The position numbers were made by a program, and so were the translations under genes. Positions 10,594 to 10,700 of a stretch of DNA of 64,000 nucleotides are shown in pieces. A model generated the notes under the pieces. The model saw only the letters and a list, made by a program, of their open reading frames with translations. It was not told the origin of the DNA and ran no database searches. Origin of the DNA: Escherichia coli (lineage in GTDB: Bacteria > Pseudomonadota > Gammaproteobacteria > Enterobacterales > Enterobacteriaceae); assembly GCF_003334405.1 (NCBI RefSeq), contig NZ_QOWM01000014.1; one strand, written 5' to 3'. Every line of letters starts with the position of its first letter. Position 1 is the stretch's first letter.

Positions 10594-10700
10594 TGCCGGA
10601 TGCGGCGTAAACGCCCTATCCGGCCTACATGACGTTGCAATTTATTGAATCTGAATGATTTTTTAGGCCAAATAAGGTGCGCAGCACCGCATCCGGCAAC
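10594..10700. repeat. BIME/RIP-type composite element: two REPs flanking an IHF-site-like linker
   Basis: REP gccggatgcggcgtaaacgccctatccggcctac, linker tgcaatttattgaat..., second inverted REP ...gcgcagcaccgcatccggca; sits between convergent yigE and uvrD. Confidence 0.6.

Follow-up and report, generated by a model that had tools for sequence, protein, structure and literature searches.

Our analysis of two intergenic gaps in Escherichia coli DNA—yigE/uvrD (site 1) and aslA/aslB (site 2), both located within the 64-kb window that constitutes the whole stretch of DNA analysed—indicates, with a probability of about 0.85, that each gap carries a single-copy, L-linker member of the enterobacterial REP/BIME family, the linker of which would be bound by IHF and the hairpins of which would shape mRNA 3′ ends. 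At the DNA level, IHF would bind the asymmetric core of the linker, placing a bend between the two REPs. At the RNA level, transcription would pass through the element and be stopped by Rho further downstream, and 3′-to-5′ exonucleases would then trim the transcript back to the REP hairpin, leaving a stable mRNA 3′ end. As non-autonomous DNA, the elements may have spread and been rearranged by the action of the REP-associated transposase and by recombination between REPs, and the 15-mer TGCAATTTATTGAAT common to the two loci would be a reflection of their shared family membership. Descriptions of REP/BIME elements whose linker binds IHF go back to the early 1990s, and the class itself, its IHF site, its position at 3′ ends, its role in stabilising RNA and its polymorphism are established knowledge; the present findings carry little weight as a discovery, with both copies behaving as expected. 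Their value is one of annotation—the two gaps can be described as L-linker BIMEs of the RIP type, not as sites of an unexplained similarity.

Both elements are intergenic, each lying between the stop codons of its convergent genes, i.e., yigE(+)/uvrD(-) at site 1 and aslA(+)/aslB(-) at site 2 in the orientation of the window. The gene pairs are those named in a preceding sequence-only reading of this DNA, and the limits it had proposed for the two elements (10594..10700 and 26547..26652) were off by no more than 1-2 nt and have been refined to those given in Table 1. The window comes from a K-12-type E. coli chromosome. Across positions 9500-11800, it is 100% identical to MG1655-like genomes, and it runs in reverse-complement orientation with respect to NC_000913.3. 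A comparison over 19 kb with this reference revealed two substitutions and one 24-nt indel as the differences, all of them within hemY-hemD (~21315-24134), and the window is for this reason not exactly the MG1655 reference; the indel also explains an apparent 24-nt offset from MG1655 coordinates, and neither REP element is touched by it. The RefSeq annotation of NC_000913.3 contains no repeat features at the two sites, and the Rfam gathering scan found no family at either of them. Away from the elements, Rfam matches in the window comprised GlmZ sRNA (24233-24439), the TrxA 5′ UTR thermometer (45081-45180), Rev39 5′ UTR (60333-60625), a four-tRNA cluster (28063-28496) and two more tRNAs (63844-64000).

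The shared 15-mer is exact and on the + strand at both sites. When up to two mismatches were allowed, these two matches were the only ones in 64 kb, against 0.17 expected, and a 25-nt extension of the linker likewise matched at the two sites only in the window scan, with 0 expected. REP palindromes were detected at both loci, with all four REP heads reading exactly GCCGGATGCG (at 10595, 10697 in reverse complement, 26548 and 26651 in reverse complement) and with CTAC/GTAG feet in three of the four units, the right unit of site 1 having TTAG. Each core sits ~34 nt deep between inverted REP units, and alignment of the two 150-nt regions in the same orientation gives 82% identity. These exact matches and REP heads bear out the proposal that both junctions contain two inverted REP palindromes around an identical 15-bp core: the likeness extends beyond the 15 bp, REPs flank the core on both sides and an IHF-type match is present in the linker. 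The elements also display the features by which REP/PU sequences are recognised, namely a head of the form GCC(G/T)GATG, an imperfect palindrome of ~30-40 nt with a conserved GTAG/CTAC foot (in three of the four units), an extragenic position, a high degree of repetition and use as an IS1397 target.

In terms of anatomy, each site holds a single element with no tandem reiteration, and the linker spans 34 nt in both cases. At site 1, the head of the left REP faces yigE and its internal palindrome could be found, while an A-tract lies 8 nt upstream of the IHF match on the - strand. The right REP and the 3′ part of the linker are degenerate at this locus: the foot of the unit is not GTAG, its loop is unusual (GGTGCGCAGCACC) and its head is directed toward uvrD, and its 3′ half resembles a small hairpin present at that position in strains without the element. 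At site 2, the left REP is a hybrid, z2-like in length and loop and y-like in its head (GCCGGATG). The right REP of the same site is identical at 31 of 32 positions to GTAGGACGGATAAGGCGTTTACGCCGCATCCG, the REP oligonucleotide crystallised with TnpA-REP (PMC3479197).

Table 1. Features of the two elements and of two site 1 alleles; positions are those of the window unless another record is named
Feature	Position	Strand	Sequence or description
Site 1 element	10595-10697		146-nt yigE/uvrD gap; MG1655 4000149-4000253
Site 1 left REP, 34 nt, y-type	10595..10628	-	+ strand reads GCCGGATGCGGCGTAAACGCCCTATCCGGCCTAC; GTAG-first (REP) reading on -
Site 1 L-type linker, 34 nt	10629..10662	.	ATGACGTTGCAATTTATTGAATCTGAATGATTTT
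Site 1 core, T variant	10636..10650	+	TGCAATTTATTGAAT
Site 1 IHF core-consensus match	10638..10650	-	ATTCAATAAATTG; one mismatch to WATCARNNNNTTR
Site 1 right REP, 35 nt, degenerate y-like	10663..10697	+	TTAGGCCAAATAAGGTGCGCAGCACCGCATCCGGC
uvrD-sense Term-seq RNA 3′ ends	10588..10589	-	5-6 nt past composite hairpin base (PMC7815308)
IS1397 insertion	L126 1300-1380 and 2700-2760		equivalent to window 10607-10611
Alternative site 1 allele	L131 9257-10285		E. coli FDAARGOS_1300 (also L129); equivalent to window 10556-10701
Site 2 element	26548-26651		158-nt aslA/aslB gap; MG1655 3984218-3984325
Site 2 left REP, 36 nt	26548..26583	-	GCCGGATGCGATGCTGACGCATCTTATCCAGCCTAC; head faces aslA
Site 2 L-type linker, 34 nt	26584..26617	.	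AGAACGCTGCAATTTATTGAATTTGCACGATCAT; near family consensus
Site 2 core	26591..26605	+	TGCAATTTATTGAAT
Site 2 IHF core-consensus match	26593..26605	-	ATTCAATAAATTG; one mismatch
Site 2 right REP, 34 nt, canonical y type	26618..26651	+	GTAGGCCGGATAAGGCGTTTACGCCGCATCCGGC; head faces aslB

The definitions of the repeat family adopted here derive from later open-access papers and from the present survey of 127 copies. The whole element was found at no fewer than 38 places in every complete E. coli genome (5,426/5,426), and at least 40 places were counted in 5,428 records. For the linker alone, together with its CTAC/GTAG feet, the median count was 15 places in an E. coli genome, with 24-27 in K-12-like records; these are copies detectable with a short query. 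Scanning one genome per species with the pattern CCTAC-N5-9-TGCAATWTATTGAAT returned at least 120 loci; among the matches listed, E. albertii, two E. coli representatives, E. whittamii, Escherichia sp. E1V33 and three Pseudocitrobacter genomes each had many copies. Escherichia-type REP/L-linker sequences were also observed in assemblies labelled Alistipes, Bacteroides, Desulfosporosinus, Methylobacterium and Alkalicoccobacillus (L072, L048, L064, L101 and L118), on contigs that are short or of low coverage, with L072 holding the yigE/uvrD element itself; the contigs in these five foreign-genus assemblies are probably E. coli contamination.

Aligned in the orientation of the linker, the 127 copies exhibit a fixed polarity—a conserved left flank, a 29-nt unit, ~7 variable nt, TGCAATATATTGAAT TTGCAyGATTTT, a y-type unit and a conserved right flank. 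The 29-nt unit GCCTGATGCGCTACGCTTATCAGGCCTAC (GCCTGATG) stands to the left of the linker in 92 of the 127 copies and, judging from the published definition together with the survey, would be the z1 REP; the y-type unit GTAGGCCGGATAAGGCGTTyACGCCGCATCCGGC stands to its right in 109. A loose pattern scan of the same 127 copies identified the left flank motif AGACTGATGACAAACGCAAAA... in 46 and the right flank motif ...GAACAAAGCGCACTTTGTCA in 72, and these conserved outer motifs are presumably the ones that go by the names A and B. The length of the linker has its mode at 35 nt, with 34 nt the next commonest value. Position 7 of the core consensus TGCAATATATTGAAT is A in 106/127 copies and T in 21/127, and the 15-mer singled out by the sequence-only reading is the minority T form of this family core. 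As such, its identity at the two sites is not evidence of a special link between the loci. Six more REP pairs at the same loci, collected without requiring the core, contained a recognisable core variant in 6/6 cases. Moreover, column conservation showed that the core is preserved across Escherichia and Pseudocitrobacter and that the 7 nt preceding it vary freely, and the most conserved stretch of the linker, AATATATTGAAT, is asymmetric and largely unpaired in predicted folds.

Within this family, the make-up of the two window copies is atypical. Neither of them has the 29-nt left unit, the corresponding REP being a 34-nt y-type unit at site 1 and a 36-nt z2/y hybrid at site 2, and the outer flank motifs of the family are absent from both. 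A left unit headed by GCCGGATG was present in 7/127 copies, all of them representing these two loci or their apparent orthologues according to flank alignment or flank sequence; in the 127-copy survey, this unusual REP partner was unseen at other L-linker loci. Taken with the ACG before the core and the T variant, the shared head hints weakly, at the level of sequence, at a common variant ancestor. An unusually close kinship of the two copies was rejected on linker sequence: over a 40-nt comparison, sites 1 and 2 show 9 differences where the family averages 10.8, and 41% of family pairs show no greater divergence.

Several known classes invite comparison with these elements. RIP or RIB is reportedly the REP-IHF site-REP class of Oppenheim et al. 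and of Boccard and Prentki, both from 1993. The window elements share with it the two REPs around an IHF-consensus site and the tens of copies per genome, with no architectural difference evident; putative IHF binding at these two loci in particular draws its support from ChIP-chip overlap. REPINs, said to have been defined in Pseudomonas by Bertels and Rainey in 2011, are REP doublets forming hairpins. They are alike in folding, as a pair of inverted REPs, into a single long hairpin and in a presumed mobilisation by RAYT/TnpA-REP; however, REPINs of Pseudomonas have different sequences, and E. coli L-linker BIMEs possess an extra protein-binding linker. The tnpA-REP gene is located elsewhere in MG1655 (PMC3333891, PMC3479197). 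BIME-1, in turn, is defined by one z1 REP plus one y REP (PMC3333891). In comparison with BIME-1 as treated by Gilson, Bachellier and Hofnung (summarised by Ton-Hoang et al. 2012, PMC3333891), the window elements agree in their single copy, inverse REPs, long conserved L linker, IHF-type core and extragenic location at gene 3′ ends, as well as in the y REP on the family side of the linker at site 2, but differ in that the partner REP is not z1, the conserved flanks are missing and the core is the minority T variant. The BIME-1/RIP architecture assigned by the sequence-only reading hence stands as far as the succession of REP, L linker and inverted REP is concerned and falls where a canonical BIME-1 with a z1 REP is implied. 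With a REP other than z1 to the left of the linker, the two elements are not canonical BIME-1 and are better named atypical L-linker BIMEs or RIP-type elements. Chimeric combinations of REP type and linker type are also a mark of atypical BIMEs, which nevertheless occur as multiple tandem copies (PMC3333891), whereas the window elements are single.

Turning to the linker as a candidate IHF site, the core reads ATTCAAtaaaTTG on the - strand and agrees with the IHF consensus WATCARNNNNTTR at 12 of 13 positions, including 8 of the 9 specified ones. It also resembles the core of the lambda H′ site (TATCAAtttgTTG), the consensus and the H′ site being taken from PMC8407004 and PMC2709558. The core stretch ATTCAAnnnnTTG contains TTG, and the base that varies between A and T lies in the NNNN spacer, which the consensus leaves unspecified. 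Across the window, the consensus was observed 51 times at up to one mismatch against 47 expected, a chance-level frequency that renders the match uninformative on its own; the motif scan thus located the predicted site but could not set it apart from background when standing alone. The L linker, or inter-REP sequence, of the family is known to bind IHF (PMC3333891, PMC2817692), and this published binding, combined with the consensus match, agrees with the earlier proposal that the linker is a putative IHF site.

Further evidence on IHF occupancy can be drawn from the ChIP-chip data of Myers et al. 2013 (Table S4, PMC3688515), which list 1,020 enriched regions in U00096.2 coordinates—1,977 below those of NC_000913.3, an offset confirmed with the peaks at the uvrD and corA promoters. 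Site 2 lies within a peak at 3981855-3982650 whose midpoint is ~44 nt away from the centre of the linker, and a second one at 3998280-3998410 starts 4 nt beyond site 1, which it abuts but does not cover (PMC3688515). Since about a quarter of the local sequence (~24% of the neighbourhood) falls under IHF peaks, the overlap lends weak support to the presence of IHF at these loci; array resolution is low, and the chance of both overlaps occurring together is roughly 0.03-0.05. The worksheet in Table S4 is named 'HNS_...', and peak 3998280 is nevertheless absent from the H-NS table. In the supplements of the IHF GeF-seq papers, there were no entries for these genes.

At the RNA level, the predicted folds of either strand of either element pair the two REPs into one long hairpin, with energies of -54.6 and -55.2 kcal/mol at site 1, -68.7 and -74.8 kcal/mol at site 2 and z-scores from -4.7 to -7.0; the linker is quasi-palindromic (TGCAA...TTGCA) and pairs in these folds. 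Published Term-seq data place RNA 3′ ends at MG1655 4000259 and 4000258 (+) (Adams et al. 2021, Supplementary file 1, PMC7815308), and the 61-nt context printed there corresponds to the uvrD-sense strand through site 1. The same source reports a Rho termination region at 4000389 (+), ~130 nt further downstream, with a Rho score of 3.5 and a significance of 3e-10, and a 3.5-fold rise in read-through there when Rho is inhibited by bicyclomycin (PMC7815308). This pattern fits the general model in which REP hairpins act as exonuclease barriers and shield the 3′ ends of Rho-terminated mRNAs (PMC6061677). On this basis, the uvrD 3′ end would be attributable to the REP hairpin serving as a barrier after Rho-dependent termination, and the suggestion that such elements work as terminators or mRNA stabilisers gains published support at site 1 from the Term-seq end and the Rho region. 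The trimming pattern is seen for uvrD in the published 3′-end and Rho data and is only inferred for yigE, aslA and aslB, with PMC7815308 listing no 3′ end in the aslA/aslB gap. Scanning for intrinsic terminators gave a single marginal match, which lies at site 1, and nothing at site 2, no more than in shuffled sequence, and no U-tract follows the hairpins at either site. A promoter scan of both gaps yielded nothing convincing.

Both loci vary among strains. The site 1 element with both of its flanks is found in 3,012 of 5,426 E. coli genomes. In one record (NZ_CM136177.1, strain PRO_A-1028-6W-A_ESBL), IS1397—an element that targets REPs (PMC1525189)—interrupts the left REP in its loop and is accompanied by a 4-bp GTAA target duplication. 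In an alternative allele, yigE and uvrD are separated by a 903-nt gene with the annotation SAM hydrolase/halogenase family, and the place of the REP pair is taken by a small hairpin ahead of uvrD (GCGGAATGCGGT...ACCGCATTCCGC). The likeness of the site 1 right REP to this hairpin suggests that the unit may be partly derived from it.

At site 2, at least four alleles exist. The flanks are collinear with those of E. albertii (L018), E. whittamii (L083), E. coli E69 (L067) and O145 RM9872, and the element is identical to theirs at 96-97 of 104 positions when flipped and at 80-83 of 104 in the same orientation. At an identity of at least 95%, the K-12-type junction is found in ~2,350 E. coli records and the flipped junction in at least 63, e.g., O145 RM9872 (L124), and both orientations of the aslA/aslB REP pair accordingly occur within E. 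coli. The flipped element may have arisen by in-place inversion through the 12-nt outer arms or by independent re-insertion. In E. coli AR_0015 (L125), the region equivalent to 26546-26653 is reduced to a single y-type REP hairpin, an arrangement that could result from a deletion between short direct repeats (ATCCGGC) present in both units. In E. coli 05-3629 (L123), a 1,579-bp deletion (window 25003-26581) has removed most of aslA and the left REP, with its right breakpoint at the CTAC foot of that unit. Given that many strains lack the element or carry it in rearranged form, the elements are dispensable and any host function is non-essential. The strain variants mark both gaps as rearrangement hot spots, a feature of use in genome comparison and in the design of uvrD or aslA constructs.

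Could these elements be selfish or neutral mobile DNA only, with the linker conserved through a recent master sequence and not through any use of IHF or RNA by the host? The presence/absence and rearrangement patterns at both loci, the near-identity of the site 2 right REP to the TnpA-REP substrate and the cleavage and recombination of BIMEs by TnpA-REP in vitro (PMC3333891) are all in keeping with such a possibility. We nonetheless regard it as unlikely, although clearly the most credible of the alternatives, as the core, unlike the freely varying 7 nt that precede it, is retained in both Escherichia and Pseudocitrobacter, and the 3′-end and ChIP data point to an interaction of the cell with these very copies. 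Mobility is, in any case, compatible with the L-linker reading preferred here, origin and current effect being separate matters. A different objection concerns the linker, which might be conserved for a reason other than IHF, for instance as the apex of the hairpin in RNA or DNA or for cleavage by TnpA-REP at CT sites within it. The quasi-palindromic linker and its predicted pairing fit this notion, TnpA-REP sometimes does cleave inside linkers (PMC3333891), and the IHF consensus match alone is not significant; yet the most conserved stretch is asymmetric and largely unpaired, IHF binding to the class is published (PMC2817692, PMC3333891) and ChIP-chip peaks lie at or beside both sites, which makes a purely non-IHF explanation improbable.

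We attach similarly little credence to the proposal that the elements are bidirectional intrinsic, Rho-independent terminators of their convergent gene pairs. The convergent setting and the very stable hairpins on both strands would suit this role, but the missing U-tract, terminator matches no more frequent than in shuffled sequence, and the Rho region downstream of site 1 with its bicyclomycin-dependent read-through all argue against it. Chance sharing of the 15-mer has a negligible probability and is refuted by the expectation counts, with both matches falling between REP pairs and the 25-nt extension expected nowhere, and by the hundreds of homologous copies elsewhere. Finally, recurrent inversion at site 2, by REP-arm recombination or through the REP transposase, might flip both the IHF site and the type of REP facing each gene and thereby create heritable expression variants. 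This is a very doubtful prospect; if true, inversion would represent a slow switch for the flanking convergent genes and not mere decay.

The hybrid type of the site 2 left unit recurs once more in the window, where a solo REP (GCCGGATGCGATGCTGACGCATCTTTTCCGGCC) occupies positions 48136-48170, flanked by the convergent ORFs 46633-48126 (+) and 48173-50245 (-).
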